A DNA stretch of 64,000 nucleotides from the NCBI GenBank assembly GCA_973895155.1, contig OZ316893.1, forward strand, positions 310,001 to 374,000, in the 5' to 3' direction. A model generated the notes under the pieces. It was not told where the DNA came from, did not search any database, and was given only the letters and a program-made list of their open reading frames with translations. Numbering within the stretch: the stretch's first letter is position 1; each line of letters begins with the position of its first letter. Origin of the DNA: Marsupella aquatica. Taxonomy: Eukaryota; Plantae; Marchantiophyta. Positions 19,241 to 51,640 of the stretch are shown piece after piece. The translations under genes were made by a program, and so were the position numbers.

Positions 19241-19708
19241 GATTCGAATTATGAACCTACTACTAGTCCACTTCACCAACCTTTACACCCTACACCATTC
19301 TTTTCTCAGCAAAGATCCCCTTTCTCTGAAGATTCTGATCCCCCCTCAACTCCAGAATACTATCCTCCCTATGATATTCCAGTCTATGACTCACCAGATC
19401 AAGGATTTGAAAGGGTTGATGCAGCTTTGCGATCCAATCTCAACCTTGTTGCAGTTGTCACTTCCTCTACCCTGACTCCTAGAAATGCTATCATCTATAA
19501 AATGGAGTCTAGAACACCTAAGCAACAGGTTTAGAAGTACGTCACCATTTGCAAAATCATCCATGCCAACACATCACCTATAAGTGAGTTATGGAGGTTT
19601 TATTATCAAACGAAAGCAGAGACTAGTTACATTTTTGACCTCAGGACAATTGGCACCTCTCGCTTGGAGTTGGCCCAATTCGATGAACATTGGACAGATA
19701 TGTTCTTC
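19241..19708 (+). pseudogene. Fragment homologous to the C-terminal half of the family-2 ORF
   Basis: Translates DSNYEPT...SEDSDPPS...QGFERVDAALRSNLNLVAVVTSS...SYIFDLRTIGTSRLELAQFDEHW, versus QGFEDVDTALRSNPDLVAVVTSS...SYIFDLRCLGTSRVEMAQFDEFW at 44065-44360. Confidence 0.85.
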
Positions 19709-22018: not shown

Positions 22019-22432
22019 CAGACGTTAAAGTCTTGGTACCACTTTATGCCAATAATACCGCACTTTCAGGCTTAGAACTTGGGCGGTACATCAGACATTA
22101 AAGTACCCATACTTTACGCCAAGAATACCGTTCCGGACAACGTGCGTACCATATAACGATCGTAGAATCCGGAGCGTACATATAACAATTGTACCACAAA
22201 GAAGGTACCTATTTGCTAGCGGCCGCCAAGAAGGTACAGATTCTGCACATGCACAAGGTACATATTTGCCAGCAGCCGCCAAGAAGGTACATGCAAACTC
22301 TGGGGATGTAGTATATTCTCCAAGATTCCGTCCGGCCTTGCCTAAAACATTTCTTCTTCTTCCGTCGTGTGGCTTATAATCCCCTCTGCAAATATGCCTG
22401 ACTTGAAGGATGAATAAATAGCCTTCCGACTT

Positions 22433-23810: not shown

Positions 23811-24029
23811 TAGTTTCCACCCTAAATTATTCTTGGTGGGGGTCTCTGAGATGGACTCGGGTCATTTGGGCAACAGTCTTTGTACTCGGCGAGCCTCTCT
23901 GAGATTGTAGATTTGTACGGACACGCGATCCATACAGAATTACATTGTAAAAACATTGAAAAGTATTGTACGGTCAGTTTTTGCATGCACTTTTGGGTTC
24001 ATCCTTGTATTTTGGCGAGGGTCTGACAT

Positions 24030-27450: not shown

Positions 27451-28352
27451 TGTGGTGCGTCCCATGGCTCCCTAAACCCCAGAAACCCCCCTTCACAAGC
27501 CGATTCCCGCGGGTTTTGCGCTTGGCGAGGCCGTTTCCGCGGCTTAGCGGTATGGGACGCTGCTAACCTTCTACTACTACTATTAACATTTTACACACAT
27601 ATACTGGACAGATCCTTCATCGGGTCATGAGATACGTAGCCGGCCTAATCTAGGCCTTCCCTTGTCTTCCCCTCCGTCTTGTTAGGTATGTTTGGATTCC
27701 ACCGCCGGAATGATCCCCAATAGGCTTGGTTAAGTCGCTAAGACCTCTCTCAGCTCGACACATCCAACTCTCACTCCCCTGCTTACTTTCCTTCCTCTAC
27801 TAGTTGATGTGGGCACTCTTCACACAAGTTAATGCAACACACAAATAGCAAAATGACTCCTTTTGACTGAGTCATACCATGCACTTGCCATACAAACAGT
27901 ACATCTCATACACAAGCCCTACGAACTAAGCCGTGAGGCCAACTCTATTAAGCTCTTAGGCATGAGGAAACATGAATATACACAAGGGTCACTGTATGAC
28001 TAACCGAGAGCTTCTCTTACTACTTGATCCCAGCCTGGCTGGTGCAAACTAAAAACTTGCTAAAGAAGAGGCCCTGAGCTCCCCGCTGCCCAGGTACTTA
28101 TCCTGGTAGTGGATCCGCCTAATTCTTTGCAGCGTAAGCCTAATCTACTTAACTGGATCTACCTATGTACAGCGAGGCAGAAGTACAAGTGTTGCTCTTA
28201 CCAGTGGAACCGCAATCCCACTAAGCTAAGTGTCAGGGCCGCCTCCTGGTCATGATCCTAATCCTAAACTAAGAGATCTGAGCCCGCCCTGCCCACTCAC
28301 GCCTCCTCCCTCCACGTCCGCCCTTCCTAAAAGGAATGGCGCCCTTGCACCG

Positions 28353-31300
28353 TCACGACACCGGTGGTGGATCCTCAATGGACGCCCCCAATGCTTCCAC
28401 CTCAGCCACTGCCGTAGGTTCGTTTTCTGACAGATTACCTGCCCTTGACTGAGTCAACTCTCCATCGGCCTGACTGGGTCCACCCCCGGTAACGGCATCG
28501 GCTTCAACATCAGCCTCGGCTACGGCCTCAGCTTTGGCCACGGCCTCCCCGGCCTGCTCAAGAGGTGGATCTGGGATACCGGCCTCATTACTGAGTAGTT
28601 CGGCTTGGGCCACGCCATCCCCACCTTTGGTGATAGCGGGATCTATTGTCGTGTTCATGCCGGAGGTTGGTACCGGTTTGAGTACGGCTTGAGGGGTCGA
28701 ATAACCTCCGGACCCCAAAGGTTTCCGCTTCTTCTTCTTCACTATCTCCATAGTCGGTTCCTTTCCCTTGCCACCAACGTCCGGCACCGGGCCGTGTGTC
28801 ACGGCTGGTCCTTCGGCAATTACCACCCCGGGTAACTGGTTTGCCCCAACGGGAGATGGACCTGATGCAACTAAGCATTTAAATACTGCGGCTTGTTTCT
28901 TCAGCCGCTCTGTTTGGTTGTCGGCCCGCCGCTGTAGGTTCTCCATCTTCCTTGTGATTTCCTCCAACTCCTCCTGGGTCTCATCCAGGTCCTTACGTGC
29001 CTCCTCCAGCTCGTTTTTGGCTTCCTCCAATTCCGTGTGGGCTTCCTCCAATTCCTTCTTGGTGGTAGCCCTCTCCTCCTGGGTTGCTCTTAGCTCCTTG
29101 TCGAGCTCCGCTACAACCTCAAACTCCATGCTATTCATCTTGGCATAAGTCTGGTCGAGCTGGGCGTCCTTCTCCCGCAGGTCGGCCTTGAAGCTGGCCG
29201 TCAGGGACGCAAGCTCCTGCTGTAGCGCAATAATCCCTTGATAGGATTTCCCTAACTCGGCCTCCTTCTGCTCAAGGGCTTTGCGGATGACCTCGAGCTC
29301 TTCCTTCAGCGCCCTCTCCCTTCTCTGAGTCTCTGCCGCGACCCGGTTGTTGACTGCTATATGGGCCTCCTCTGCGTCTCTCAGCTCCTTCTTCCATTTC
29401 TCCCTGTCCTTGATTGCGCCGGCCAATTCTCCCTGGGTCTGAGTCAGTTTATCCTTGATAATCTTATTATCAGCCTGCGCGGTGTCCAACTGCCCCTGCA
29501 TGATGTTCAGCTCATGCCGCTTAATCCGCAGTTCATCTTGGGCTTTCTTGGCCGCCCTTAGATCTTCAATCTCGGCTTCCATCCTCCTAAGCCGCCGGAT
29601 GACCTCGTCCTTCTTGCTTCTCTCTAAAGCCACCGCTTCTTCTAATTGGTGCTTCTCCAACTGCTCCCTATGGAAAAAGGGTCCTACCTCCAACTCCTCC
29701 CCAAAGATGCCGAGCGCAAGTTCCCCACATATCTCACCATACTCCATGGCTCTATTTTTAGCGTAGGTGGAGTAAGTAGAAGTGATCGGCATCGCCCATC
29801 GCGGCCTCTGCTCCCAAGCCGTCTTGCGGATCTCTTCAATCGTGGCTAGAGGTTTGCTTCCTTTTTTGGTTAGCCGCCTGATGTCCTCCGGCCAATCTCC
29901 TCCTGGCAAATCCTTTTCCCTAGCCAGGGCTGCCTTTTCTGCTTCCCTAAGTCGCTCCTGAAATTCCTGCGCCGTCTACTTTATGCCGTCAAAGCTCGGG
30001 GGAGCAACATCTGGTGGGGGAGACTCGGGGCTACTCTGCTGGTTGGGGTCCCCTCGAACTACCCTTGGAAGTGTGGGGATAAACCGGCCACAGGTCCTTA
30101 CTCCTGGAACGTGATGGTCCGACCCATAGCTGGAGTTATCATGGCTGCAGTCCTCCACTGCCTCCTCCACCTCTTGGACTTCCGGCTTCTCCCTCTCCTC
30201 TTCGCCGGTAGGAGCTTCAGGCAATTCCGCCTCAAATTCAGAGCTTGAGACTCCCACGTACATTCAAACACCCGGCTTGGATTCTGGCCTGATTCTCTCC
30301 TTATTTCTGGTAAAGGGGTTTTCCCTTCTAAGTCTGCTTAGGTTGACCTCTGGGGCAGTATCCTGTACTGGTGCCGCTGCCGAAGCTAGTGCCGTCTTTT
30401 CCTTCTCCAGCATTTTCAGCAGATTTTGTATGCTTGGTTGCTGCATGGGCAAGTCTTCCTTCCTTGGCCTAAACACCTACTCAATCGTAGGGCTAACAGG
30501 TGGTTGAGGCCTCTCTGCTACCGGCCTCGGTGCTGGAGCTTCCTCGGGTGCCCTTACCTGTAGGGGAAGTACTGGGGCGAAGGGTTTTCCCTTCTAAGTC
30601 TGCTTAGGTTGACCTCTAGGGCAGTGTCCTGTACTGGTGCCACTGCCAAAGCTAGTGCCGTCTTTTCCTTCTCGAGTAATTTCAGCAGATTCTGCATGCC
30701 TGGTTGCTGCATCGGCAAGTCCTCCATCCTTGGTCTAAACACCTGCTCGATTGTAGGACTATCGGGCGGGTTGGGTTTCTCCGTTGCCGGTGTCTGCTCC
30801 GGGTCCTCCTCCGGTGCTCTTGCCGATAGGGGAAGTACTGGGGCAAAGATTTGACTTCTGGCATACCGGCACAACAGCGGCATGTGATAGCCAAGCCGGG
30901 ACACGCTTCCCACGCCGATCACCTGCTGTTCCTCCTTCAAGATCTTCTTCAGTTGGTTGAGGAGGTACCCATTGTAATCCCGGCTTGGGTCTGGCCTTTC
31001 TGCCAGGTAGACCTGAGCCTTGCCGATCTCTGCCCTCGGCAAGTTACAATGCATGGTCACCCGCAAGAAGTCGATCATCTCTCCTATGTGCGGGTTGGTG
31101 CAGGTGTTCCGGAAGAAGCCATTCTTCATTGATGGCCTGGGGAACGACCGGAACTCCTTGTCAGGCAAGGTCTTCCTGGTATCAACTTTGGTCTTATTGC
31201 CTATCGGCAAGCCAAACACTTCGGCAATCACCTTGGGAGTAAGATAGAAATCCTTCCCATATATCCTCGTGGAATTGGTCTCGGGTTCCCATGACCCCAC

Positions 31301-32201
31301 GAATTCTAATAGGTCTGAATCCGGCACCTTCGGCTTCAGCCATGGTAATCTTACAAAGGCCTCTAAGCCGGATCCGGCCATGAAGCCTTGGTACTTCTTG
31401 GTCTGCATGGCCGTAAAGCATGCATCCTCCTCCCGTGCAAAATGTAGTTGCACCTCCTCTGGTAGGGTTGCCGCCCAACCTTTCCAGGTGTCATCCCTGG
31501 TTGGAATGGCATTGATGGGATCGTCCTCCTCCTCTTCGGCTTCTCCCTACCTCCTGCTCTGCTGCTCGGCTGGCTTCTTTGGTGCCGCCGACCTCGTTCT
31601 TTTTGTCGGGGTGGCTTCATCGTTGATGGCTCCCTTCCTCTTCATTTCGGCTCCCGTGGATGTCTCTCCTAGCACGGTTGCCTTTGTCCACCCCTCCGTG
31701 CTACCCCTCAACTCCCAGGGTATGTTGTTGCAGCGTTTGATGGCTTCTCGGATGCCGACGACTCTATCTTTGCAAAACAGAAGATCGTCGAGCTGATTGG
31801 AAGTAGGAGTCCACAAGAACTCGGCCTTGATGAGTTCGCCTCCTAAGAAAGCCATCTTCTACAGCTCCCACAATCGAGCGAGCTCCTGCCGTTCTCGAGC
31901 TGCCCTTTCTAATTCTTCGTCCTCTTAAGTCTTGATGTACTTGGTTGCCCGTTCGAACAGGCATCCCCAGAAATGTGTCGCTTGATTGACGTTGCTCATA
32001 CCCTCCTTAGGTCGATCGTCGGTATCTACTCTCTCCCCGAGTGCTTGCCTAAGCAGCTGACAGTAGTTGGCCTCCCGTAGTCGTCTGCCTAGTTTTGTGC
32101 TCGCAAATGAGCCACCATTCCCTGCAAGCGCTCCTTACCCCTCTCCTCTTCCGGTTCTTCCTCCCGTTGATCCTTCCTAGCCGCCGACGCTTAGCGCGCC
32201 C
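28353..32201 (-). pseudogene. Family-1 ORF, copy B, with several stops and an internal ~270-bp duplication
   Basis: ORF pieces 31547-31855, 30554-31453, 30264-30476, 29976-30263, 28353-29909 are colinear with the copy A/C protein. Confidence 0.85.
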
Positions 32202-34823
32202 TGTAAGTAGTGGGTATTTCCAAAATCATGAAGAAACTGAATTTTTTTTAATTTTTTATGGGGTTTAACCTCTAATTGTTGATAACAGAACGGAGATAGC
32301 ATTCTGTCTACAAGTTACGGTTCCCAAGTTTAAAGTAAGTTTACGAGTAAACTCCAGTTACTAGTTACGAGTTACGGGGTTGCGACAGTATACTAGTTAC
32401 GAGTATACTAGTTACGACTTACTAGTTAGGGCTTTACAAGTTGTGCCTTACGAGTTGGCGACCGATGATCGCGACGTCTTACGGCTACTTCCAATGGGAC
32501 TTAGCAACGGGATGGCGAACGCGAATTGAAGAAAAGGCAAATTAGACTTCGGGCGCTCACTCCTAACTTAATTCCTGCCACCTCTGTTGATTCTACCAGC
32601 TTCCCCACTCCTTAGTGCACTCAACATATCGAATGAGAGCTATGGCAAACCTCGGCATTGATGAACAGTACCGAGTTGACACTCTGGCAATTCCTAAGAG
32701 CATAGTCGCCCGAATTCCACCAGCGCCCGATAGCTATGCAAATTTACGGACTTCCTTACAGCAGCTAGGTTTGCAGCATCTACTTGCCGTTCCTTGGGAA
32801 GTAGAGCTCGACACATATTTGCAGGATTTTGTAAAGGGGTCAGTGCTTGCTCCTGAATTTTGACAGACTATTTGAGCTCAACCCAGCTTATGGACTGTGG
32901 AACAAATTGCTTATGCCTTCCGCTGCCCTTCAGAAGGAGAAGGATTGTATTCGAAGAAGAAAGATTTATCTACACCTTACTTCTCTGGGACTCGCAATCT
33001 CACCAATGGCTGGAATTTAACACAGTGTATTTATCCAGATTTGAGAGTGCTTCTGGAATTTCTAGTACCCATTCTACACCCGAAGAAGCCAACCATCTGT
33101 CCAGTGGCTTTGGTGAATACAATTGTAGCCGCACACAGTGGATCTGTCCAGGTGAATTGGGCCCTACTAATTTTCAATGTGATGAAGGATCAGGTGAGGA
33201 CCATGAAGGCAGGTAGACCCACTCGTCTGCAGATTTATTTGTCTCAACTCTATCATGCTTATGATTGTTTATATCCAGAGGAGAAAACGGAAAGAGGGCT
33301 GCTCCTGATTGAGTTAGGCATTGAAGAAGACCTAAGTATGGAAGAACCAATGGATGTTGTTCCCCTGGATTCTCATGATCAGAATGTGGATGCTGAGATG
33401 GAATTAGATAGGACACCTGCTCATAACTTAGAGCTGGTTCGACACCCTCTGCATAACGTGGTGTATTCACCAAGAGTTAATATGAGAGATCAACCTAGAG
33501 CTGGAGAAGACAGAGATTCTCCTGAGCAATCAGCCAATGTTGCTGAACTGGCTCTTGCAACTGTCAACCTAAGGACCAACCCCTCCACTCCTTCGAAGGC
33601 AGAGTCGAATCAGCAGCTTATTGATAAGTTGACATCTCTCCTCAGTTGCAGTAATGATGGACTATATGACGCTGTTAATAATTTGAGAATGGAGGCTGTT
33701 AGTTTGAGATCACCATTTCATGATCAGCTAAGTCCTGTCAGAATGACCTCTCCCCCAAGAGAACCAGCACCAATGGAATTTGTGATTTGTACTCCTGTCA
33801 CTGTACACCCCCCTCCCCTAGAAACAAGTGAGCCTATTCCAGTAACAGATAGTATCAGCTGTGTGGCCATTGTGGATGACTTGTTAGAACTACTACAGTG
33901 TGAACCTCGACAGATGGCATTTGTGGTCCGCAACTTGATCCAACAATGTCCAACTGCTAGTCCTACTCCTAGCCCAGGTTCGCAACCTTACAGCCCTGAT
34001 TCCAACTACGAACCCACAGAAGGACCCACCTACAATCGGTCACAATATGAGCACCCTTTTGACATAAACACTACTACATATTGGCCCCTTTTGCGAAGCT
34101 TTTTTTTGACGCCAGGATGGTCTTGCGATGTCATCGACTTCAGATATTTTGTGATCAAACACGCATCACAATAAACCATGCTCACAGGTTCGCAACATGG
34201 TGTTGCGAAGCTACATACCTCGCAATTTGTTTGAGATCGGATTGAATTCGCAACTCTTTCAGATACTATTCGTCTCGCAAAGTATTTGTGGATCCGCGAC
34301 CATCGCGACTGCATTTGGATCTCTTTTCTTTCATAATTTAGCGATAATAATGTACTCAAATATATATTGTGAACCTATTAGCTTCGCACAATATTGTGAA
34401 GCATAAATAGTCACAAGTTATCGAATCCAGTTGATTCGCAAAGTTGAGAACACATTGGCATCACAATTACCGATGGTGTGTTATTCACAAAGTGTTCAGA
34501 AGTTGCTTCTTGACAAGCTTGAAAATGTTTTGCAAAGAGAGTTGTTTGAAAATTTTGTAGAATGGAAATGTTTGAGAGAGTTTCTTTACAAGATGGAGAA
34601 TGCATGTGTTTAGGTTACAGCTAGGGTTTTCAAAAAGGTGGCATGCATGAGGATAGCTTTGGAAACGGCTAAGGTTGCATATATAACAGTGAGATGAAAT
34701 TTCAAAGTCCAATTAAGTGTTTGTAAAACAAAAGAAGAAAAGTAATATGTTAATATAAATAAAACCATGATAGTTAGTTTAGGGTCAAATTCTGGGCCCA
34801 CAACAAGTTTTACTACTAGTGCA

Positions 34824-37800
34824 TCAAACCTGGTCCTCATCCTCGCCTCCATTTGACACAATAATAACGTCAGGTTTTTCTGAGATAATGGAACGGGACC
34901 GTGGCACATACGGTATAACAACTGACCACTCTAGGTCTGGTGGGTACGGAATATAGAAACACTTCTCAAGGTGACTTGGGAATGTAAATGGTTCAGATGT
35001 TTGCCAATGAGATGGTTGAAAGCTAGTTGCTGATGTCTTCAGTCGAGTAAACCCACACTCATCAAGAAGTACCGTGCGATTATCACCAACCAGGTGAATT
35101 TTGAACCACTTACACTTGAAGACATACTCTTCAAATTTGGAATCGGCATCATAGGATATGATCAAGATCTCCTCAATCTTCCCATAGTGAGGCACCACAT
35201 CTCTGATCACATTAGTGTCATGACGGCTACTTTGTGAATCTTGCATGAACTGCCCTTGAACTCCACAATCAAAAGTTCTTCCCCTCTTCTCATCAAGGTC
35301 AGAAATCCTGAAATGCCTCCCTTGTGTCCACATTGTTGTTCTGGTTTGAACAAGTCTTAAAGGACCATGAACAATTGTTCGAACCTCAGGAGTCATATCT
35401 GGAAAATGTGATACATTCTCACCTTGGGCCACCATAGCATCCAACTGAAGTACTTTCTCCTTCATATACTCAAGGAACTTTGGAAAGATCCTTGGGCGAC
35501 GACTCTCCCTCTTTGCATCCTCATAAAACTCTCTCCAATCTTCCATCACATTGTTGTTACTCAACATGAAAGTACTAACCTGTGTCAACTCCACTGCGGT
35601 TAGTAAGCGTGTTTTTTTTGCACCTGTTAAACGGTCCTCCTCCACTTCCCTCTCTTCCATCCAAGTGCGTGGAAAACTAGGATCAATGGTAGCTAAGATG
35701 TTACTACAATAAAACATACTCTCATTTGCCAAGTATCCAGTTGCCATGCTCCCCTCCACTCGTGCACGGTTCCGTACATAAGCCTTTAACACGGCCATAT
35801 ACCTTTCCAGCCAATACATCCACCTACAATGCACCGGACCGGCAATGGCAACCTCCCTCACAAGATGAACGAGAAGATGCACCTGACAATCAAAGAAGGA
35901 AGGAGGGAGGGCCTTCTCCAACTTGCATACCACCTCTGCTGCCAATACCTCCATCCGTGGTATCTCTTCTTCATATATTTCCTTTGAGCATATCCATCTC
36001 AACAAAGTGCCCAGTGACCAAAGGGCGTCTTGCACTTCTTCACTCCCCAAACCTATGATTGCCATAGGAAGTATATGTTGTAGTAAACGATGATAGTCAT
36101 GTGTCTTGAGATACATTGGCCATTTATGACTGTCCTCCATCCCAAAAGCCTTACGTAGATTGGCACCATAGCCTGTAGGAAACCGCATCTGCCCTATGCG
36201 TTGTCGAAACTCTCTTCTTTCACCAACACTCAAAACCCATGGAGCTGAAGGACGATGTTCCATCCCTGTGGATTCATCAACTGTTATCCATACATCTAAA
36301 CCCTAAATCCCAACATGATTTAGGGTTTAGAACATTAATTTTAGGGTTTAGAACTATACATCCAAGAAGAATCAGGTTAACGATCCTTCCCAACATTTCC
36401 CTCTATATGCATGGGGTCTAACAAGTGATGAATCTTCAACTCAGGCCAATAGGGCAAAGTGGCCAGTATACCCCACCTTGTCAATCCACTACCATCAAAT
36501 CCCATGGCATCTTCAGGGTCTGCCACCCTATCAGCTATGGACTTCCAATACGAAAATGTTGTGCGGTCAGGTATCTCACGCTCATCACCATTGATCATGT
36601 CAAAGTCTGAAAACAAAAGGGGGTCAGACCTCATGTGATGCCCAAGTGGAAGAAACTTGGTATGACCAAGGTAGATTATCTTGTGCAGCCATTTTGAGTA
36701 CTTGGCCATATCGTGAAGGCTTGGACCACAAGTGGAGCATGCCTTGTACCCTTGAGTTTGGAACCCAGAAACAAACCCAAACCCTGCTCACAAAATAACA
36801 TTCTCAATTAGAGTCAAAGGAATTGAAAAGTTCATGTACATAGAATTAAAGAGGGACTTCCTTCCAAACAAACTTGATCTCCAATACATGAAAAAAATAC
36901 AAATCCATACCACTCACCTGGATAGTCATGCATGGTCCACATAATGATTCCCTTCAATTGGAAGACACGTGGTAACCCTCCTGTAGTTGTCCGACCATCA
37001 TATGCCCATACACCCCCCCATAATTTATGGAGTTCCCCAACCAAGAGCGCCAAGTAGGTGTCCATGTTTTTTACCTTAGATGGACCTGGGATAATCAATG
37101 ATAGCAATAAGAATCCCTTTTTCATGGACAACCATGGGGGAAGGTTGTAATTCATAACAACCACCGGCCAAACCGAAGTAGGGCGCCCTTTCCCTCCAAG
37201 GGAGTGTGGGCTTACCCCATCTGATGCCAACCCCAACCTCACATGACGAGGGTCACGTGAAAATTCTGGCCATTGTGACTCCACATGCTTGTGAGCAGGG
37301 GAATCAACTGGCAACCGCATGACACCGGCCTCTGATCGATGTGTCTTATGCCATACCATCAATTCTGCCAAGTCAGAACATCGGTACATGTGCAACAATC
37401 GAGGAATAATAGGAAACCAACGAACAGCTTTTCTAGGCACCTTTGAGGTCAACATGTTGGTTTCATATCGAGGCTCTTGACAAATTGGACACTCAGTTGC
37501 GCTGGCATTGGTCTCATGATAGAGAATGCAGTCATTCACACAAGCATGAATGATATGGTATTCCATGCCAATGGATGATAGAACCCTCTTTGCCTCCTTC
37601 CAAGTTCCTGGCAACACATTTTCACTAGGTAACAAGAGATCATGGCAAATTGCAAACAAATCCGATAGTAGCGCATTGCTTGCCTTGTGTTTTGCCTGAA
37701 GATTCATCAATGCCAAGATGGCAGATAGTCTATTCAAACGAGCACCCCCATAAATAGGTGTTCTAGCATGTGCCTCAGCTTCTTCCCATTGTTTTTGTCC

Positions 37801-39417
37801 TTCAGGTGTACGTTGAGGCCTTGGATCATGTGCAACATTTGGTGGAGGGTCTCCTTCATTGGGTGGGACACCTCCTTCACCACCAATGTCTACACCAAAC
37901 CAATATGTCATGAAGTCATCCATGGCTGACTCTTGGTCTTGCATGACCTCATAATCTGTCCGAGGTGCCCCTTCATCTGGACTGTCATTATCATTGTCAC
38001 TTGATGAGGAATCTGCTGATGATGTTTCCCCGTCTTGTGGCAAGCCCATTTCTTGATATGTAGCTCTCAACCTCCTTGGCAACATATCTTGACTAGGCCG
38101 CACATTCTATAGAAAATACAATAAAGTATTCACAATGAAATTAACGCCAAATATAGTAGTGCTCAAAACATATTATTAACAATATAAAAAGAACATGTCA
38201 TTACAAAACATACGTTCACATACGATGAACGTATAATACATGTCCCTAAAGTAATCCTAATCCCATTCATAATGTGTAAACAACTCCTCTCCAACCAGAA
38301 TGGTCCTATTAGCTACAACTAGACAATGGTCATGATGATATCTCTGCCCATAAGGGGCTGGAGGGGGACCATCAACAAAAACCCATTCACAGTTTTTCCT
38401 ACGCTTAGGCCGGGTCCCCACAGTACTGTTGATGAAACCGGCAATATTCCCACTACGGATGGGATCACCATCAATTATACGCTGGTCACAATACTTTCTG
38501 GTGCAACCATCAAAAGTATCCATGTCCAATGCATAAGTCTTCCACTCAGGGTATTGAACAAGGATCATGTTCCAATGTCTCCTCTTGTAAATGGGTCCAC
38601 CATACGGGAACAACGTTGGTCCATCTGAAGAGCGCCCTTTTCCACCCATATCATCCACAATAATGTCCTGACAAGAGAAAATCCCATACCCATGCCTCTC
38701 CCCTAGGGTCGAACTCTTGACAACCCAACGTCTTCCCCAAACTTCTATCTCCTCACCATAGGTTATATCACATGGCAAACCAAGGCACTCCGGATTCCAA
38801 TCCTTTATGATAGGAACACACTTCCCTGTGAAGGTACAAGGGCCCCATCTACCATCAACCCTACAAGTGTACTGATCCACTTCCCCTCTAGGCTGTCTTT
38901 TTGACTTTTTTTCCCTCTTGTAACAATACCGTCACCCTTAATTGTCCCAACACTACCTTGCCCTGCTGCCACTAAACGAAAAGCTTGTGAAAGTGCCGAG
39001 CCTATAGCATCTAGAACTCCTTGTGAGGGAACATAGGGTGTTGGTGTAGTGGGTGTAGGCCTACTGGATACCTATAGGAAGAAATGGAACCAAGTGAGTG
39101 TGATGAACCTCCCAAATTTTATTTTATGCTACCTAGCAAGATTTACAAAATAAAATGGAAATCACAGTAAGTTTACAACTCACCATACGGGATGAAGAAG
39201 CTCCCGGTGTAAGACCTCGATGTTGGCCATATCGAGCAATGTGCTCCGCACATACATATGACTTTTGGACAACCATCCCCACACATTTTTTACAACCACA
39301 AAGTTGGCGTGGTGGACCACTAGGTCGACGTACGGTTGGTTCAGGTTGAGGAGGAGGATGACTTTCTTCATCGGAAGAGGAATCTGATGTGGTGGAAGTT
39401 GTAGAGGATGAAGACAT
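34824..39417 (-). CDS. CACTA transposase (TnpD-like), multi-exon
   Basis: CGCKKC...CAEHIARYG zinc exon; IHACVNDCILY, RHVRLGLASDG, SVWPVVVMNYNLPPW, WTMHDYPG, HLLDPMHIEGNV, LKTHDYH, PPSFFD..HL.VHL, WMYWLERYM..LK.YVRNRARVEGSM; GT-AG junctions visible. Confidence 0.93.
38257..39071 (-). CDS. SET-domain exon inside the CACTA transposase gene
   Basis: HGYGIFSCQDI, PYGGPIY, YALDM, IIDGDPIRSGNIAGFINS, VVANRTILVGEELFTHY; acceptor TTCCTATAG at ~39072; apparent frameshift near 38930. Confidence 0.8.
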
Positions 39418-39844
39418 CTGACAAGTATAGCAATTGGAAGGCGATTAGTAAAAACTTCACCAAAACCATCATTGATAATCCCTACCTAAACATATTAAAA
39501 AGAATTGACAGAAAAATACCTTTATGAGACCCGGGCTTAGCAATGCCTTGACGGATCTTGTGGCTCAAATTTCATGAACCAAATCTGGAAGGAGGGGAAA
39601 ATCTGCCAATATACAATGAATTAAGCCATGCCTTATGGTGAACCAGAAAAAAAGGATGATAGATTGTAACCCTCCATATTTACAGCAATGACTAGAAATG
39701 CATGAGAAAATGTTATACCTTTCAGATGCCCGGGCTCTCGCAAGGCATTATCATGCATTAGCCAAAACTTTAAAAAACATGGGGAAGTGCCCTACAACGC
39801 CAAAGAGTTTTCCTCTCCATGTTAATGAGATAGACAAAGAAATA

Positions 39845-40640
39845 TAAGTAACCCAAACCCTACCCTAAACCCAAACCATGAAATGAAACCCTTCATTAAA
39901 ACCTAACCCAAATCCCTCAATCACCCTAAACCCTTACCCTTATCCTAACCAATACCCAAATCCCTCATTAAAAATTCAAACCTTTACCCTAAACCCAAAC
40001 CCCTACCCTAAACCCAAACCATGAAATGAAACCCTTCATTAAAACCTAACCCAAATCCCTCAAGCACCCTAAACCCTTACCCTTATCCTAACCAATACCC
40101 AAATCCCTCATTAAAATTTCAAACCTTTACCCTAAACCCAACCCAAATCCCCCAATTACATATAAAACTCTTACCCTATCTACACCTTACTTTACCTATA
40201 TAGGCCAACCCCCACCCCTATAGTTATTCTAAACTTCACCCTAACCCCTAAATTGAGGCCCTTTTTTAAAACTTAAGCAAAAATTGTACCCCCTCAATTA
40301 GAACCAAATCCAACCCTATATCATGTTACACCCCAACCCAAACACTTACATTAGAAACCCAACCCCTTTAAAAAAACCACAATTAAACCCCCCAACTAAA
40401 AACCAAACCCAATCCCTTTAAAAAACAACCACAATTCAACCCCTCAACTAAAACCAAACCCAACCCCTGTAATTACTCACAACCTAATGCAAACCTCTAC
40501 CTTGAACCCTAAGCCAAACCCATTAATTTAAACCCAACCCTTTTATTCCAACCTAACCCAAGTTTTAACCCCCTTAATTAAACCAAATACTCCACATTAA
40601 AACCAAATATAAACCTAACCTTTAATTAAACCCAAACCTT
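39845..40640. repeat. A/C-rich degenerate AAACCCT(A) region with a ~122-bp direct duplication
   Basis: ACCCTAAACCCAAACCATGAAATGAAACCC occurs at ~39862 and ~40005; many AAACCC motifs. Confidence 0.8.
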
Positions 40641-41137
40641 TGTTAACTTATATTCTAGTTATCCTTACAACCCAAACATCCATTGACACCCCTTCCATGT
40701 TAACTTATGGGCACTTAACATACCTTAAATGTCGTTTGACAAACCTTAATAGCCGTTTGACACCCCAAAGTGTTTTCCAACCCTAAACCGATAAGACCTG
40801 CCTCGCAAATTATTTCACAAGTTAGAGAATATTTTTGCGAACCTACGACCTTCGCACTTGCTTCGCAAAAACAGAGGCCGAGAACAATTTTTTGGGTCTT
40901 CTGCGGGTTGCGATGGCTTTGCAAAGGGAATAGATTCGGAAGTGCCTCGCAAGTTGCGAGACTATTTGCGAGGGCGCGGGCTTCGCAGTTTCCCATGCGT
41001 ATGTCATCGCAAACCCGTTTTTGAACGGCGTAAACATCGGCGGGAGCTCGCATTCGGGCTCATTTCAGTTTTTGAGCGAGACGAGAAGGGCCGGGGCGCG
41101 CGCAACAGTACGAGGGAGACTGTGAGAGAGGGGAGCT

Positions 41138-43194
41138 ATGGCTACCGGTGAGGGGAGTGGAGGGCAAGGTGGTAGTGGTAGTGGTAGTGGTAGTGGCAAT
41201 GGGGGAAATCCAGAGAAAGAGAAGAATGCCTGGGCAGACTTAGTGGCCCAACATCTCAGTGCTGCACAATTGGGAGAAGTGAATCTCAATTCTCTAGCAG
41301 GGCTTGCCTCTTTGAGTGCCATTCTTGGACAGGTTTTGCAAACTGGGATTGTAGCAGGACAAGCTACTAGAGAGGGGGAGGAGAGGGCCGCAGCTGAAGA
41401 GAAGGCTAGAGAGAAAAAAAGGAAGAGAGAGGAAAGAACTAAGTCGGGAGTTGCCTCTCCTCAAGCCCTAGAGAAGCAGAAGAGAAGAGAGGAGAGAGAT
41501 TCAATTCGAAAACAGAGGGAGGAGCAACGTCAGAAAGAGGAAGCAAGAAAAAAACTTCCATTCATTGCCTTGGAGACGAGTGGGACTCCAACTGAGCTAG
41601 CATATGCAGGGGCTAAGAGCACAATCAAGCAGATTATCACAAGCAATTTCTCACGAGGCATGCAGTGGGGGAAGATTGAGAAGGCAGAGCGAAAGAGGGT
41701 CATCAACCAAATCAAGGATGCATTTCGCAATGGGCCTGACATAGATGAGCAATGGTTGGCAGATAAGATTTCAAATTCTATGTCTCAAATGCGATACCAT
41801 GACAGGATGAAGATTAGAGCCCACCTGAAAGACTTGAGATCATACAGGAACTTGCGCAGACCCCTCCACTTCACCGAGGACATCTGGAATTCGTTTTACA
41901 AGATTGAGGTGCAAATTAAGGCAGCTCACGAGTTGGAAGAGTGGAAGGGCAATCTAGATCGAGCCTTGAAAGCAAAGGAGGCCGGGAACTCCCCCTGACC
42001 ACGACCTGAAGCCACTTGAGCAGAAGGTAGCTGAGATGCAGAAGGTGGCCGACCAGGAGGGAAAGCCACCCAAGCGTTTCACAGATGCAGCCAAACGAGT
42101 GAAATCCACCCCCAATCCAGTCCACAAGTTGGGTCAAGGCGGGCTCCCCGGCCTCAAGTCACACTTTGTGAGTGCCTCTTGCTCCTCCCTAACCTCTCTA
42201 TTCCTTTCAGAGTTGTGCAATGCAAGTGAATGACATCCCCGAAGGTTCTTGCTGTTGTGCATGCTTGCTTGGTTACTAGTTTAGGGCAACTCTGACACTT
42301 AGAATTTCTGGCAAATTTTTAAAAACTCTTGGGAACACAGTTTGCGAAGGTGTTGCGATGCGTATTTGTTCGCAAACCCCTCGCAAAGTCTATCATAGAC
42401 TTTTTCCATTTCAATTTTCCGATGCCTTTGCGAACAAATGCGCATCGCAAACTCCATCGCAACGCCTTCGCAAAAAAAGGTGGTTCGCAAGTTGCTATGC
42501 TTATAGGTTCGCAAATTTGAATTAAAATTTTTTTTTGGGTCATGTTTAGTAGTTGAGGATTTAGGCGTCACTTGTGGCTATAGGGTATGCTTAAGGGCAA
42601 ATTTAACCAATTTTAATTGGTTTTATGCATGGCAGTATCGGAGGTACAAAAGGAAGATATCAAAAAAGCATATTGAGGTGGCGATAGAGCATGGACGAAA
42701 GTACCTCTTTGCGATGGTAGATGCCGAGTTGGCTACTGTAAGTGTCTAAGTGTGAACCATATGATTAGCATGCGAACATTGTGAGTGACCCTTTATGTCT
42801 TGCGGAAACTAATGATATGTAATGGATGCAGGATTCGGATGAGCCTGAGGGGTCGGGTGCTGATGTGACCAGTAGTGATGACGATGAGGGGGCTACTCCT
42901 GGTACTAGTGGTGCTCGGGGGGGGAGTAGTCGTGAGGTAGGTTCTTCCCACCGTGGTAGTGGTGGTAGTCGTGTGTCATCAGCACACGTTGATGACCAGG
43001 GGGAGGAGGAGGACCCTGAGGATGAGGAGGAGGAGCAGGAGGGGCAGGAGGAGCCAGAGGAGCAGCAGGAGCAGGAGCAGGAGCAGGAGCGCCGACGGCC
43101 ATCACGCACCCGTCACCAACAGGATCCCCGGAAGGATAAGGGCAAGAAGCCAGCCAAGAAGCCAACCAAGAGGAGCCGCAAGAGCCCATTCTAG
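41138..43194 (+). CDS. CACTA second gene (occupying the TnpA role), multi-exon, divergent from the transposase
   Basis: ORFs 41138-41998, 42036-42167, ~42636-42737 and 42826-43194 with GT-AG boundaries; basic coiled coil and acidic tail; no recognisable family motif. Confidence 0.6.
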
Positions 43195-45381
43195 TTATTT
43201 TGTAGAGATACATGCATGAGAGTGACTTGTCATGCCGGAGCTTAGGGTAGGAAGAGGCAGCATAGGTTTAGAAGGGCGGACCTAGCATCAGATATTTCCC
43301 CCCTCTTGTCCATGTATAGGGTTCTTTGAAGCCCTATCATTTTGTTCATGCTTTTCCATTTTATAAAACAACAATTTTTCCTTCCACATTGGGTTCCAAG
43401 GAAAACCCCTCGCAAATAATGTATTGAATCCTGTGTGATCATAATTTTGCGAACCCTTTAAGAACTCATTCCCATCGCACAATATTAACCCCAAGGCGTT
43501 GCACTTTTTGAGTCAATTAACTTCAGAACTTCAGATCCAAATATGTCGGGTTTTTGTGATACTTCTAGGATCGCACTTTCCTAATCGCAACCGTTCACAA
43601 ACTTCTAAAATCACCGGTATCGCTCTTTGTCATACAATCCCCATCAAAACAATTGAACCAGTATCAATCACAAATATGATGCGATGGTAAATCCGTCTCA
43701 AATATTGACGCCCGCGCGGGACGTGTGCGTGTATGTTTGCAAACCTTATGCGACGTATAATGGATCGCAAAAGTATTGAATATTGCGAACCTCTCAGCTT
43801 CTCAGTTTGCCATGATGTTGCGATGCCGTTGCGATGGTCCGCGTGCGAAGTTATTAGGTTCGCAAAGTGCGAAGGGGGTGCGATGCGCGTATGTTCGCAA
43901 TAGCCAGAATTATGAAAATCAGGGGCTTGTTAGTTGCGATGAGATTGTCTTCGCAAAACCGGCCGATAGTGTTGTAGTGAAAAGATCTACCTGAAGACTC
44001 TGATCCACCCTCAGATGGTGAAACTTATAGATCTTATGATAATTCTCTTGAGTCATCCCCAAGGCAGGGATTTGAAGATGTTGATACTGCCTTAAGATCC
44101 AATCCAGACTTAGTAGCAGTTGTCACTTCATCTACTCAAACACCTCGGAATGCTACTATCGAAAGCAGGTACCCTAGACGTCCTGAGTCAGAAGTGCATA
44201 GGTATGCCACCACTTGCAAAATAATGCAGGCCAACAGACCACCGGTTGGAGAGTTCTGGAGATACTACTATCTAAAGAAGACTGAGGCAAGCTACATCTT
44301 CGATCTTAGGTGTCTTGGTACTTCTAGAGTGGAAATGGCACAATTTGATGAGTTCTGGATTGACTCAATATACTTTCGGCCTATTCTTGCTATGATGCTA
44401 CTCCAAGGTGATGTAGAGGTAGAGGATTCAGACTTAGTTCTAGCATACTTTGGAAACTTTGCAGCCTATGCCTTGGATTTTGTGGTTTCCTTCCTGATGC
44501 AGAGCAAGAAGTCTACTACTCTACAACACGATTACATACCACAAGGACCTAAGGTTACCCTTGTTTCAACCAGTACATTGGCTGAGAAACAGAGGATCTG
44601 GAATAATGTCACTTCTCAGACTCTAGCTGAATTCAACCGGTATTTCAGAGATGTCAGATGGAGACTTTGACCCTTCTATTCCAGGATGATGAGTAATGAT
44701 GAGTTCCTGTACCATTATCCCCAAGTATATGCTGCTACCTGCAACAACTATGATGTGATCGGGATGTACAGAGAAGCCCTTCGTATTGATTCATGTTATT
44801 TGATGAAGAGGATGCCTTTGATGTATCCTGAGAGATAACTGAGGTGCCTACCATACTCCAGAGGATCCCCACGCCAAGCTGAACTGATGGAGGTTACTCA
44901 GAACCAAATTGTTACCCTTGTGGAGTTGCTGGAACCCGACGACATCCGACAGCAAGCTTGAAGAAGTCTTTTAGTTAGTTTTTAAGAGTAGTGCATCTTA
45001 TCTGATTTTTAGAAATGCATTCTAGAGCTTTGAAAGCTGTCATACTTCTTTAGCATGTAGTTAGTACCTAGGAAAACCTCCTGGCAAAATCGCAGAGTTT
45101 TCTGACTTATAGTTAGGAAGTTAAAAATAGTTGAATTCATCAAGTCTTTACTTTACCGCAATTACGAGTTACGACTTAGCTTTTACTAGTTTAAGAGTTA
45201 CTAGTTTCCGATTACGAGTTCCGATAGACAGCCGATTACGAGTTAATAGTTTACTAGTTACGAGTTCATACTTAGCCATTTTTCCGGCTTTTCACTTACT
45301 GAATCGCCATTTTAAAATTTTGAGGGGTATGAAGAGGCATGTCTCTTCGACCCTGTGACCTCTCACTCAGTAGATTTTTAC

Positions 45382-46976: not shown

Positions 46977-49900
46977 TGTGGTGCATCCCATGGCTCCCTA
47001 AACCCAAGAAACCCCCCAGCTCAACCCGATTCCCGCAGGTTTCGCGCTTGGCGAGGCCGTTTCCATGGCTTAGCGGCATGGGACGCTGCTAACCTTCTAC
47101 TACTACTATTAACATTTTACACACATATACTGGACAGATCCTTCATCGGGTCATGAGATACGTAGCCGGCCTAATCTAGGCCTTCCCCTGTCTTCCCCTC
47201 CGTCTTGTTAGGTATGTTTGGATTCCGCCGCCGGAATGATCCCCAATAGGCTTGGTTAAGCCGCTAAGACCTCTCTCAGCTCGACACATCCAACTCTCAC
47301 TCCCCTGCTTACTTTCCTTCCTTTTGGTTGATGTGGGCACTCTTCACACAAGTTAATGCGACACACAAATAGCAAAATGACTCATTCTGACTGAGTCATA
47401 CCATGCACTTGCCATACAAATAGTACATCTCATACACAAGCTCTGCGAACTAAGCCGTGAGGCCAACTCTATTCAGCTCTTAGGCATGAGGAAACATGAA
47501 TATACACAAGGGTCACTGTATGACTAACCGAGAGCTTCTCGTACTACTTGATCCCAGCCCGGCTGGTGCAAACTAAAAACTTGCTAAAGAAGAGGCCCTG
47601 AGCTCCCCGCTGCCCAGGTACTTATCCTGGTAGTGGATCCGCCATTCTTTGCATCGTAAGCCTAATCTACCTAACAGTAATCTACTTGCCCGAATCTACC
47701 TATGTACAGCAAGGCAGGAGCACAAGTGTTGCTCCTACTAGTGGGACCGCAATCCCACTAAGCTAAGTGTCAGGGCCGCTCCTGGTCCTGATCCTAATCC
47801 TAAACTTGGAGATCCGCGCCCGCCCTGCCCACTCACGCCTCCTCCCTCCACGTCCGCCCTCCCTAAAAGGAACGACGCCCTTGCACCGTCACGACACCGG
47901 TGGAGGATCCTTAATGGACGCCCCCAACGCTTCCTCCTCAGCCACTGCCGTAGGTTCATTCTCTGACAGATTACCTGCCCTTGACTGAGTCAACTCTCCA
48001 TCGGCCTGACTGGGTCCACCATCGGCGTCGGCATCGGCTCGGGAATCGGTTACGGCCTCAGCCTCGGCTATGGTCTCCCCGGCCTGCTCAAGAGGCGGAT
48101 CTGGAATACCGGCCTCATTACTGAGTAGTTCGGCTTGGGCCGCACCACCCCCACCTATGATGATAGCGGGATCTATTGCCGTATTCATGCCGGAGGATGG
48201 TGCTGGTTCTACCTCCTTGGTCACCACGGCTTGTGGAGTCGGATTACTCCTTGACCCTGAAGGTTTCTGCTTTTTCTTCTTTTCTGGTTCGGCAGCTGGT
48301 CCCTTCCCCTTCCCACTTACTTCCGGCACTGGTGCAGGTGGCGCGGCTTTTTCTTCGGCCAGTACCACTCCTGGTAACTTAATTGGTTGCCCCAATTGGA
48401 GTTGGGCCTGATGAAGACAAGCACTTAAATACTGCGGCTTGTTTCTTCAGCCGCTCCGTTTGGTTGTCGGCCCGCCGCTGGAGGTTCTCCATCTTCCTCG
48501 TGATTTCCTCCAACTCCTCCTAGGTCTCATCCAGGTCCTTGCGTGCCTCCTCTAGTTCCTTCTGGGCTTCCTCCCGTTCTTGTTTCAAGGTAGTCCTCTC
48601 CTCCCGGGTTGCTCTTAGCTCCTTGTCGAGCTCTGCAATGATGACAGACTCCATCTGGTTCATCTTGGCGTAAGTCTGTTCGAGCATCTCGTCCTTCTCC
48701 CTTAGGTCGGCCTTGAAGCTGGCCGTCAGGGACGCAAGCTCCTGCTGCAGCGCCATAATCCCTTGATAGGATTTCCCTAACTCGGCCTCCTTCTGCTCAA
48801 GGGCTCCGCGGATTTTCTCAAGCTCCCCCTTCAACGCCCATTCCTTTCTTTGGGTCTCCGCCATGGCCCGGCTGTTGGCTGTTATGTGGGCCTCCTCTGT
48901 ATTCTTCAGCTCTTGCTTCCACTTCTCCCTCTCTTTGATCGTGTCGGCCAACTCTCCCTGCGTCTGAGTCAGTTTATCCTTGATATTCTGATTATCAGCC
49001 TGCGCGGTGTCCAACTGCCCCTGCATGATGTTCAGCTCATGCCGTTTAATCCGCAGTTCATCTTGGGCTTTCTTGGCCGCCCTTAGATCTTCAATCTCGG
49101 CTTCCATCCTCCTAAGCCGCCAAATAACCTTGTCCTTCTTGCTTCTCTCTAAAGCCACCGCTTCTTCTAATTGGTGCTTCTCCAACTGCTCCCTATGGAA
49201 AAAGGGTCCTACCTCCAAGTCCTCTCCAAAGATGCCGAGCGCAAGTTCCCCACACATCTCACCATACTCCATGGCTCTATTCTTAGCGTAGGTGGAGTAA
49301 GTAGAAGTGATCGGCATCGCCCATCGCGGCCTCTGCTCCCAAGCCGTCTTGCGGATCTCTTCAATCGTGGCTAGAGGTTTGCTTCCTTTTTTGGCTAGCC
49401 GCCTGATGTCCTCCGGCCAATCTCCTCCTGGTAAATCCTTTTCCCTAGCCAGGGCTGCCTCCTCTTCCTGCCTGATTCGCTCCTGAAATTCCTGCACCGT
49501 CTGTTTTATGCCGTCGAAGCTCGGGGGAGCAACATCTGGTGGGGGAGACTCAGGGCTACTCTGCTGGTTGGGGTCCCCTCGCACTACCCTTGGAAGTGTG
49601 GGGACAAACCGGCCACAGGTCCTTACTCCTGGAACGTGATGGTCCGACCCATAGCCGGAATTATCATGGCTGCAGTCCTCCACTGCCTCCTCTACTTCTT
49701 GGACGTCCGGCTTCTCCCTCTCCCCTTCGTCGGTAGGAGCTTCAGGCAATTCTGCCTCAGATTTGGAGCTTGAGATTCCCACATACATTCGAACACCTGG
49801 CTTGGATTCCGGCCTGATTCTCTCCTTGTCTCCAGCAAAGGGGTTTTCTCTTGTGAGCCGGTGTAGGCCTACCTCTGTAGTAGTGTCCTGCATTGTTGCC

Positions 49901-51640
49901 GTTGCCGTTGTTGTTGCCGATGCCGATTTCTTTTCTTTCTCCAGTAGTTTCAGCAGACTCTGCATGCCTGGTTGCTGCATCGGCAAGTCCTCCTTCTTGG
50001 GCCTAAACACTTGCTCGATCGTAGGGCTAACAGGTGGTTGAGGCTTCTCAGCCAACGGCCTCGGCGTTGGAGCTTCCTCGGGTGCCCTTACCTGCAGGGG
50101 AAGTACTGGGGCAAAAGTCTGACCTCTGGCATACCGGCACAACAACGGCATGTGATAGCCAAGCCGCGACACGCTCCCCATGCCGATTACCTGCTGCTCC
50201 TCCTTTAAGATCTTCTTCAATTGGTTGAGGAGGTACCCGTTGTAGTCCCGGCTTGGGTCTGGCCTTTTTGCCAGATAGACCTATGCCTTGCCGATCTCTG
50301 CCCTCGGCAAGTTACAATGCATGGTCACCCGCAAGAAGTCGATCATCTCTCCTATGTGCGGGTTGGTGCAGGTGTTCCGGAAGAAGCCATTCTTCGTTGA
50401 TGGCCCGGGGAACGACCGGAACTCCTTGTCAGGCAAGGTCTTCCTGGTATCAACTTTGGTCTTATTGCCTATTGGCAAGCCAAACACTTCGGCAATTACC
50501 TTGGGAGTAAGATAGAAATCCTTCCCATATATCCTCGTGCAATTGGTCTCGGGTTCCCATGACCCCACGAATTCTAATAGGTCTGACTCCGGTACCTCCG
50601 GCTTCAGCCATGGTAATCTTACAAAGGCCTCTAAGCCGGATCCGGCCATGAAGCCTTGGTACTTCTTGGTCTGCATGGCCGTGAAGCATGCATCCTCCTC
50701 CCGTGCAAAATGTAGTTGCACCTCCACCGGTAGGGTTGCCGCCCAGCCCTTCCAGGTGTCATCCCTGGTTGGAATGGCCTTGATGGGATCGACCTCCTCC
50801 TCTTTGGCTTCTCCCTGCCTCCTGCTCTGCTGCTCGGCTGGCTTCTTTGGTGCCGCCGACCTCGTTCTTTTTGCCGGGGTGGCTTCATCGTTGACGGCTC
50901 CCTTCCTCTTCATCTCTGCTGCCGTGGAGGTTTCTCCTAGCACCGTTGCCTGGGTCCACCTTTCCGTGCTACCCTTTAATTCCCAGTGTATGTCGTTGCA
51001 GTTCTTGATGGCCTCTCGGATGCCGACGACGCTGTCTTTGCAAAACAGAAGATCGTCGAGTTGATTGGAAGTAGGCGTCCATAGGAACTCGTCCTTGATG
51101 AGTTCGCCTCCTAAGAAAGCCGTCTTCTGCAGCTCCCACAATCGAGCGAGCTCCTGCCATTCTCGAGCTGCCCTTTCTGATTCCTCGTCCTCGTAAGTCT
51201 TGATGTACTCAGTTGCCCGTTCGAACAGGCATCCCCAGAAATGTGCCGCTTGATTGACGTTGCTCATACCCTCCTTAGGTCGATCGTTGGTATCTACTCT
51301 CTCCCCGAGTGCTTGCCTAAGCAACTGACAGTAGTTGGCCTCCCGTAGTCGTCTGCCTAGTTCGTGCTCGCAAATGAGCCACCATCTCCTGCAAGCGCTC
51401 CTTACCCCTCTCCTCTGCCGGTCCTTCTTCCCGTTGATCCTTCCTAGCGGCCGACGCTTAACGCGCCCTAACCCTAATCGGGTTTTCACCCTCAGCCTTA
51501 CCTCCGGCCTCGGCCCGGGTTCCATGGTTGCCCCTAATTGTTTATATTTTCCTTGTTTTGTCCCTATACTAAGGTGTTCCTAGGATGCCTTCCTGCTTTA
51601 CCCACTTAACCGGCCGAGTGATTCCTGTCTAGGCATCACA
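46977..51640 (-). mobile_element. Family-1 TG...CA unit, copy C, full length 4,664 bp
   Basis: Ends TGTGGTGCAT (46977) and GGCATCACA (51640); left flank ATTTT has its partner as AAAAT at 59597-59601. Confidence 0.95.
47889..51525 (-). pseudogene. Family-1 ORF, copy C
   Basis: Pieces 50281-51525, 48520-50220, 47889-48395; two CAG>TAG stops and a 4-bp insertion near 48380. Confidence 0.85.

Follow-up and report, generated by a model that had tools for sequence, protein, structure and literature searches.

A transposon that carries a SET domain within its own transposase gene raises the question of whether the domain is a working product of the element or a stray piece of host DNA. Such an arrangement is found in the 64,000-nucleotide stretch of the Marsupella aquatica genome analysed here (contig OZ316893.1; referred to below as the window), in which an exon encoding a SET domain is located between exon 1 and exon 2 of the transposase of a CACTA element, i.e., within the first intron, as described in the initial annotation. 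We conclude that this SET exon is genuine: a bryophyte CACTA lineage has conserved it under selection, and the window contains a dead copy of such an element. As for its function, the reading proposed in this work, which we hold to be evenly poised between right and wrong, is that the SET exon acts as an alternative last exon and that its product is a lysine methyltransferase, which would methylate histones on the element's own copies and counter their silencing.

The element and its main parts are located as follows:

34069 to 43979, no strand assigned: whole CACTA (En/Spm) element of 9,911 bp, a dead copy with both ends and a target-site duplication
34066 to 34068, plus strand: left target-site duplication, AAA
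43980 to 43982, plus strand: right target-site duplication, AAA
34069 to 34093, plus strand: left terminal inverted repeat, starting with CACTAC; its match to the right end is imperfect
43955 to 43979, minus strand: right terminal inverted repeat, with CACTAC on the minus strand
36918 to 38106, minus strand: transposase exon 2 (Transposase_21, E 7.2e-39), with ASDG at 37227 and MHDYP at 36933
34824 to 36783, minus strand: remaining transposase, with CxxC, DPMHIEGN, DUF4218, and DUF4216; broken
41138 to 43194, plus strand: second, divergent gene, its later exon borders placed by eye
34091 to 34436, no strand assigned: left subterminal TCGCAA cluster, 8 copies
40803 to 41007, no strand assigned: TCGCAA cluster of 8 copies just upstream of the second gene
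42342 to 42509, no strand assigned: TCGCAA cluster, 10 copies, inside an intron predicted for the second gene
43410 to 43951, no strand assigned: right subterminal TCGCAA cluster, 11 copies
39850 to 40640, no strand assigned: degenerate repeats resembling telomeres (TTTAGGG type), strongly strand-skewed and including a tandem duplication of 143 bp

The assignment of the element to the CACTA type was borne out by its termini, its 3-bp duplication, its TnpD-type transposase, and its subterminal motifs, judged against the defining features of CACTA/EnSpm elements in the available text of PMC4158355. The termini read CACTA at 34069 and TAGTG at 43979 (GTAGTG at the right end), and the AAA duplication flanks the element on both sides; when the element and one AAA are taken out, a single open frame of the flanking repeat, which served as the insertion site, is restored. 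The transposase matches Transposase_21, DUF4218, and DUF4216 (PF02992, PF13960, and PF13952) and carries the ASDG, MHDYP, CxxC, and HHLLDPMHIE motifs of TnpD-type DDE enzymes, in which a C(2)C and a His motif precede the last Glu; its break falls after the Glu motif. The window contains 57 copies of TCGCAA, where 24.5 would be expected over its whole length, and 40 of these occurrences lie inside the element, mostly in the four clusters; the same clusters are found in four related loci that include a terminus (L006, L007, L034, and L036). The telomere-like stretch occupies the gap between the two divergent genes. The second gene has no Pfam match and is present at the same place in 8 related loci, with a dN/dS of 0.118 over 7 of them; it is a candidate TnpA-like accessory, a label given by position only.

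Several other features were recorded elsewhere in the window. On the minus strand, a 524-aa frame at 15661-17235 matches a fungal-type protein kinase (PF17667, E 4e-7), in a layout that we take to be Crinkler-like, and an Ulp1/C48 protease frame at 54522-55328 (E 1.3e-10) is probably the cargo of another element. Near-identical copies of a long coiled-coil frame (7800-11500, 28350-31860, 47880-51590, and 59660-61800), two of them 1.6% divergent, lie on the strand opposite to Gypsy-type pol frames. Long imperfect tandem-repeat frames at 19589-22024 and 23974-25345, also on the minus strand, are located beside a Mutator-like or zinc-finger region and have negligible Pfam matches.

The part of the transposase gene that concerns us here contains the following features, all on the minus strand:

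39184 to 39417: shared exon 1, 234 nt, 78 codons, phase 0, with its ATG at 39417
39072 to 39183: short intron of 112 nt to the near acceptor, with a GT donor common to both predicted products
38257 to 39071: SET exon, a predicted alternative last exon, with a helix and linker, a family-specific N-terminal region, the SET domain, and its own stop
38900 to 38934: frameshift of the SET gene, falling in the linker that precedes the SET domain; the interval includes an A7 run (38912-38906)
38107 to 38256: AT-rich spacer of 150 nt from the SET stop to the far acceptor

The initial annotation had proposed that exon 1 ends in phase 0 at a GTGAGT donor and can be spliced to either of two acceptors, and each of these signals was located. 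The donor is found at 39183. The AG ending at 39072 gives the in-frame junction RM/VSSRP, identical to that of the annotated Calypogeia protein P0001, and the SET exon is closed by its own stop, TAG at 38259-38257. With the AG that ends at 38107, the frame of exon 1 continues instead into the transposase, as far as TMHDYP. Use of the near acceptor (112-nt intron) would yield a protein consisting of zinc motif, linker, and SET domain followed by the stop, about 345-350 aa in intact relatives, while use of the far acceptor with the same donor (1,077-nt intron) would yield the transposase. The spacer is thus predicted to be both the 3' UTR of the SET message and the 3' end of the 1,077-nt transposase intron. 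No start codon lies near the 5' end of the SET exon, either in the window or in P0001, so the SET exon needs exon 1.

Exon 1 itself consists of a Ser/acidic N-terminus and a CxCxxC...H motif. Against the Transpos_assoc domain (PF13963) it reaches E 0.021, which is under the Pfam cut-off; with a profile of 59 flowering-plant-type transposase N-termini it scores 11.8 bits, with controls below 0, and a profile-profile comparison with the transposase N-terminus (hhalign) gives 84% probability and E 7.6e-6. Judged by these profile comparisons, exon 1 shares ancestry with the Transpos_assoc domain found at the N-terminus of CACTA transposases. The CxCxxC...H motif also stands at the head of the distant SET proteins P0124, P0130, P0149, and P0163; in P0130, which comes from an assembled sequencing run, both parts lie in one frame, which fits a spliced or an intronless form.

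The copy in the window is dead, all three of its genes being disrupted. An apparent frameshift near 38930 had been reported for the SET gene, and relatives indeed match one frame as far as 38973 and a different frame from about 38919 onwards. An assembly error is a less likely cause than a true mutation, given that a pair of near-identical repeats in other parts of the window shows only 2 indels across 3.7 kb, although the A7 run leaves room for such an error. The initial annotation did not mention the other two lesions: the transposase is broken by a stop at 36379-36377, at a site where relatives have about 24 further codons, and the second gene is frameshifted near 41985-41996. Programmed frameshifting in the SET gene was considered and rejected, as the annotated relatives P0001 and P0005 read through at this position. 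At the transposase break (36296-36383), there is a perfect 14-bp hairpin of telomere-like sequence that ends in AG, at a place where relatives lack an intron; the intron that relatives have near 36170 is absent from the transposase of this copy.

The SET domain was recognized at several levels. Its motifs were found as GYGIF (38691), PYGG (38607), GNIAGFINS (38451), and GEELFTHY (38292), and the profile search that had been suggested as a check returned 25.4 bits for the open frame at 38931-38260, against a Pfam cut-off of 22.4 (E 1.9e-5). A structure model built with an alignment of 69 sequences reached a pLDDT of 90.2; for P0001, which comprises both exon 1 and SET, folding from one sequence alone gave 33. 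With this SET model, Foldseek gave 259 matches at E<=0.001, with SET8 and MLL1 on top, and a wide structural search gave Z scores of 12.2 for Set1 (rmsd 2.7, 124 residues aligned), 12.1 for EZH2, 11.5 for SET8 and SET7/9, and 11.2 for LegAS4. The model thus indicates a genuine SET fold. Among solved structures, a single-sequence search found nothing at E<=10, while the profile search did match, with LegAS4 best (E 7e-6). The domain resembles LegAS4/RomA, SET8, and SET7/9 in its minimal SET core (Z 11.2-11.5), and LegAS4 also departs from the NH motif; in contrast to them, it carries about 55 extra conserved N-terminal residues, and at 17-25% identity direct descent from any of them is unsupported.

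The fold names no substrate, because enzymes acting on H3K4, H3K27, H4K20, and H3K14 tie for the highest Z scores. This bears on the main rival to the proposed function, an unlikely yet serious one, in which the gene structure is the same and the enzyme is active, while its substrate is a non-histone protein, such as the transposase, the product of the second gene, or a host silencing or repair factor, so that methylation tunes transposition. Apart from a fold that favours no histone class, this rival draws on the shared N-terminal zinc domain, which could co-assemble the SET product with the transposase, on the lack of any histone-reader domain in the family proteins checked and of a post-SET domain, and on the activity of SET enzymes towards non-histone targets described in the available part of PMC10653858. 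Against it, the top structural matches are all histone enzymes, in a library that is biased that way, and other cargo enzymes of transposons are mostly read as chromatin or DNA modifiers in the parts of the literature available to us.

Whichever its substrate, the SET product is quite likely to be catalytically active, to judge from the modelled fold and the conserved residues. The GxG motif of SAM binding and the C-terminal catalytic Tyr, which define SET enzymes in the available text of PMC10653858, are both present: G81 is kept in 62 of 65 sequences, G83 in 64 of 65, and Y221 in 56 of 60, and alongside them the YxG motif, G112 (66/67), Asn168 (61/69), and Glu216 (59/61) are conserved. The canonical RFINHxCxPN motif (PMC3980110, available portion) is not retained in full, as Asn is kept in 61 of 69 sequences and His is replaced by Ser in 66 of 69. 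The initial annotation had noted NS in place of the usual NH; this stands as an observation, but the change is family-wide and no defect of this copy. We consider it quite improbable that the product is instead a catalytically dead binder or decoy, which would bind a lysine peptide or SAM, or would brake the transposase dominantly through the shared N-terminus. Such a reading would fit the His-to-Ser change and the absence of the post-SET region, no post-SET cysteine cluster being found in the 69-sequence alignment and the protein stopping three residues past the Tyr. SET8 and SET7/9 also lack post-SET cysteines. The decoy reading is opposed by the retention of the GxG, YxG, Asn, Glu, and catalytic Tyr positions in sequences 24-50% identical to the SET domain of the window, and by LegAS4, which has INFS in place of INHS and is described in the available part of PMC10653858 as an active H3K14 trimethylase. 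As LegAS4 is active without that His, the change from NH to NS leaves catalysis possible.

The gene layout was followed in a metagenome scan that gave 39 loci, 38 of them with a real SET match (L039 had none). These loci were picked by SET patterns, so the scan covers only elements bearing the SET exon; 37 of the 38 look like one Sphagnum-type family, 32 are at least 85% identical to P0005, and some are repeat assemblies, so that the set represents roughly two families, namely the main family and L005. With this scope, exon 1 is located upstream in all 15 loci that have the SET start and at least 600 nt upstream of it, and transposase exon 2 lies 142-152 nt past the SET stop in all 23 loci with a complete SET end and at least 250 nt downstream; the divergent second gene is visible in 8 of the scan loci. 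The splice signals predicted for the two products proved to be conserved across loci. The donor GT stands at the same codon boundary in the 13 loci inspected, the near acceptor is TAG in 20 of 22 loci and TAA in 2, and the spacer ends in TAG in 21 of 23, with a phase-0 AG directly before an N codon. A stop codon follows immediately past the ELFTHYEWx motif in 27 of 27 loci. One locus, L020 (2345-2449), is an internally deleted derivative in which the transposase breaks off behind the Glu motif and leads directly into a terminus, and the SET exon is kept.

Support for this layout independent of the scan loci comes from annotated genes. In the Riccia gene models P0219, P0158, P0196, and P0212, a SET stretch 28-45% identical stands directly before transposase exon 2, and in P0142, P0169, and P0195 such a stretch, again 28-45% identical, precedes a start resembling that exon. 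Exon 1 is annotated as joined to SET in P0001 (Calypogeia, 351 aa), in P0005 (Sphagnum, 343 aa, from a cluster of 360 members), and in proteins of several Sphagnum species. Among the relatives retrieved, no annotated protein joins exon 1 directly to transposase exon 2; the sole match in the search for such a protein, P0116, is a gene model whose splice departs from within the SET exon. The fused models P0116, P0158, P0219, and P0324 cut or overrun the SET end, each in a different way. In a set of 106 long transposases, mostly from flowering plants, the SET profile was matched only by the two from Riccia.

Taken with these gene models, the conserved signals make it very probable that two messages are made from one donor. 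Alternative splicing may instead be absent, with exon 1-SET and the transposase forming separate or tandem frames and the transposase starting from its own Met eight codons into exon 2, an arrangement we regard as very unlikely. The window has that Met, as do the Sphagnum-type loci and some of the Riccia models; many accessory genes of Arabidopsis Spm are transcribed separately, according to the available text of bioRxiv 10.64898/2026.08.24.746577; and an exon 1-transposase protein is missing from those retrieved. Separate frames are, however, hard to reconcile with the phase-0 AG that 21 of 23 loci have directly ahead of the N codon and with the seven codons leading from the far acceptor to the first Met, which are conserved as protein (the Ser is encoded by AGT here and by TCT in relatives). 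The homology of exon 1 to the N-terminal domain of flowering-plant CACTA transposases and the lack of the Met in P0142 and P0195 argue in the same direction.

Relatives of the SET domain were sought widely. A protein search gave 43 matches among 76 candidates, those with a named source being from Calypogeia fissa (best 76%) and Sphagnum species, and a full HMMER search gave 98 clusters at 50% identity (E<=0.001), at least two of which, P0198 and P0204, are spurious repeat proteins. When 20 distant clusters were looked up, 6 belonged to Riccia sorocarpa and 1 to Calypogeia. In a tree of the family only, unrooted and built from 64 of 69 rows after 5 short rows were dropped, the SET domain of the window falls together with P0007, P0001, and P0002 (96/84), within a clade of 12 rows that includes the Sphagnum protein (100/99). 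The element SET domains of Calypogeia, a liverwort, and Sphagnum, a moss, are 76% identical, the Riccia families are about 40% identical to the SET domain of the window, and the window differs from the Sphagnum-type loci at dS 1.2-1.4. These sequence comparisons carry hints of horizontal transfer between bryophytes. P0184 and P0189 of Calypogeia fissa are distant members of the SET family with other N-termini, including Cys/His-rich repeats in P0184, for which a link to a transposase was not found; they possibly reside on other elements or are domesticated.

A pattern scan reaching close relatives only found none among 13 candidates in viral contigs or among 18 in prokaryote genomes. Of 69 members, one had a weak match in NCBIfam and one in PHROGs, which does not fix the origin, and viral SET folds match the model no better than cellular ones. 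None of the canonical host SET classes appeared among the 43, 98, or 62 sequence matches.

Selection was measured by Nei-Gojobori counts against the majority codon of the main family, with bootstrap intervals. A comparison of dN/dS across element copies had been proposed as a check, and between families it gave 0.165 for SET residues 25-224 (95% interval 0.09-0.25; dN 0.198, dS 1.20). Exon 1 gave 0.235, transposase exon 2 gave 0.097 (dS 1.37), and the later transposase parts gave 0.11-0.12; between L005 and the main family, the value for SET was 0.31 (0.19-0.48). The similar dS of the SET exon and the transposase means that they diverged together, and by these counts the SET exon is under purifying selection in sister elements. 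In recent copies, dN/dS is 0.85 for SET against 0.42-0.61 for the transposase, and 61-86% of the changes are C>T or G>A, an excess that is expected if copies become methylated and silenced; on this pattern, recent copies decay after insertion, the SET exon somewhat faster. The initial annotation would have been set aside had the exon been absent or neutrally decaying in sister copies, or a recent passive capture, and among the relatives compared neither is the case. The passive capture of a fragment of a host SET gene followed by neutral decay, as in Pack-CACTA elements, is largely refuted and extremely unlikely, for while the exon is frameshifted in this copy and dN/dS approaches 1 in recent copies, its dN/dS of 0.165 between families comes with a dS like that of the transposase, it occupies the same place in elements only about 40% identical, the transposase of recent copies decays likewise, and no canonical host SET class is seen among the 43, 98, or 62 matches.

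SETMAR (Metnase), to which the initial annotation had pointed, is a fixed host gene in which SET is covalently fused to a mariner transposase; what we take to be its structure, 3bo5, was matched at Z 8.2 in the wide structural search. Both systems hold SET and transposase sequences in one transcription unit. Unlike SETMAR, the unit described here is multi-copy and mobile, and its predicted products are mutually exclusive. In 27 of 27 loci the SET exon closes with a stop, so that no single polypeptide of the SETMAR type would be formed.

In the initial annotation, SET was not recognized as standard cargo of CACTA elements. No description of a SET exon in a bryophyte or other land-plant CACTA element was found in the literature searched (most subscription journals and Repbase Reports lay outside its scope), but SET cargo is known in other transposons, including Plavaka of the EnSpm superfamily, and so is less unprecedented than had been assumed. 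As described in the available parts of the sources, SET genes occur in HarbingerS and MuDR elements of Phytophthora (PMC12730594), in Helitrons, and in red-algal Plavaka, the latter placed in the EnSpm/CACTA superfamily (bioRxiv 10.1101/2025.02.11.637652). The HarbingerS, MuDR, and Helitron elements likewise carry a SET methyltransferase as cargo (Kojima and Jurka 2014); in contrast to the present case, they belong to other superfamilies and hosts, and their SET sequences are described, in the portions available, as accessory genes and not as an exon of the transposase gene. The Plavaka accessory gene PAG2 of red algae is similar in that an EnSpm-superfamily element has carried SET long-term, with a putative function in both cases; it differs, according to the same partial account, in being a separate gene in which SET is joined to an N6-adenine DNA methylase, in giant elements. 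Here, as far as a comparison by description goes, SET is joined to the first exon of a transposase of land-plant type, and no N6-adenine DNA methylase domain was found by Pfam in 47 family proteins.

Another parallel is En/Spm itself (maize Spm; Arabidopsis Spm3, AT2TE20205), which shares the CACTA ends, the 3-bp duplication, the Transposase_21, DUF4218, and DUF4216 domains, and the clustered subterminal motifs. The splice proposal draws on this precedent, in which Spm accessory proteins arise by alternative splicing and have an anti-silencing role: in the available text of bioRxiv 10.64898/2026.08.24.746577, TnpA of Spm is produced by alternative splicing of the transposase gene and its anti-silencing activity is shown, as an accessory product of the kind that is predicted here from sequence. 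In that account, however, the spliced accessory is a helix-turn-helix DNA-binding protein, whereas here it has a SET fold and the TnpA-like candidate is a separate, divergent gene. VANC of the VANDAL (Mutator) elements is likewise an element-encoded product proposed to protect cognate copies, with clustered short motifs; unlike the SET product, it is described in the part of the literature available as a sequence-specific binder that induces hypomethylation, and not as a SET enzyme. What is new is a land-plant CACTA element in which SET is likely, as read from the sequence, to serve as an alternative last exon and to have the N-terminus in common with the transposase; such elements could already be listed in the Bostrychia supplementary table 6 or in the Repbase Spm structure survey of 962 proteins.

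In the mechanism we propose, in which the SET product acts on histones, both messages would be made, the near one probably by default, so that the SET product would be plentiful and the transposase rare. The SET product would bind SAM and methylate a lysine, with the small residue before the Tyr permitting multiple methylation, as a small residue two places before the catalytic Tyr does in SET enzymes. The shared N-terminal zinc domain, or the product of the second gene at the TCGCAA clusters, would bring the enzyme to the chromatin of the element. A bolder version, which we put forward tentatively as possible, is that the bryophyte CACTA element's own histone methyltransferase docks on the transpososome through the zinc domain and marks each new insertion protectively, with the splice choice balancing jumping against self-protection, in a family that is old (98 clusters at 50% identity) and of which one branch moved between mosses and liverworts.

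The known anti-silencing factors of plant transposons, VANC and TnpA, are DNA binders, and if the proposal is true, a land-plant transposon that encodes a catalytic histone writer would follow a different strategy. The family is tractable: its enzymes are small and have a single domain, the sequenced genomes of Sphagnum and of liverworts include intact copies, and mosses and liverworts can serve as hosts for expression. Many Sphagnum proteins annotated as 'SET domain-containing proteins', including one cluster of 360 members, are probably encoded by transposons and would raise the apparent number of chromatin genes.
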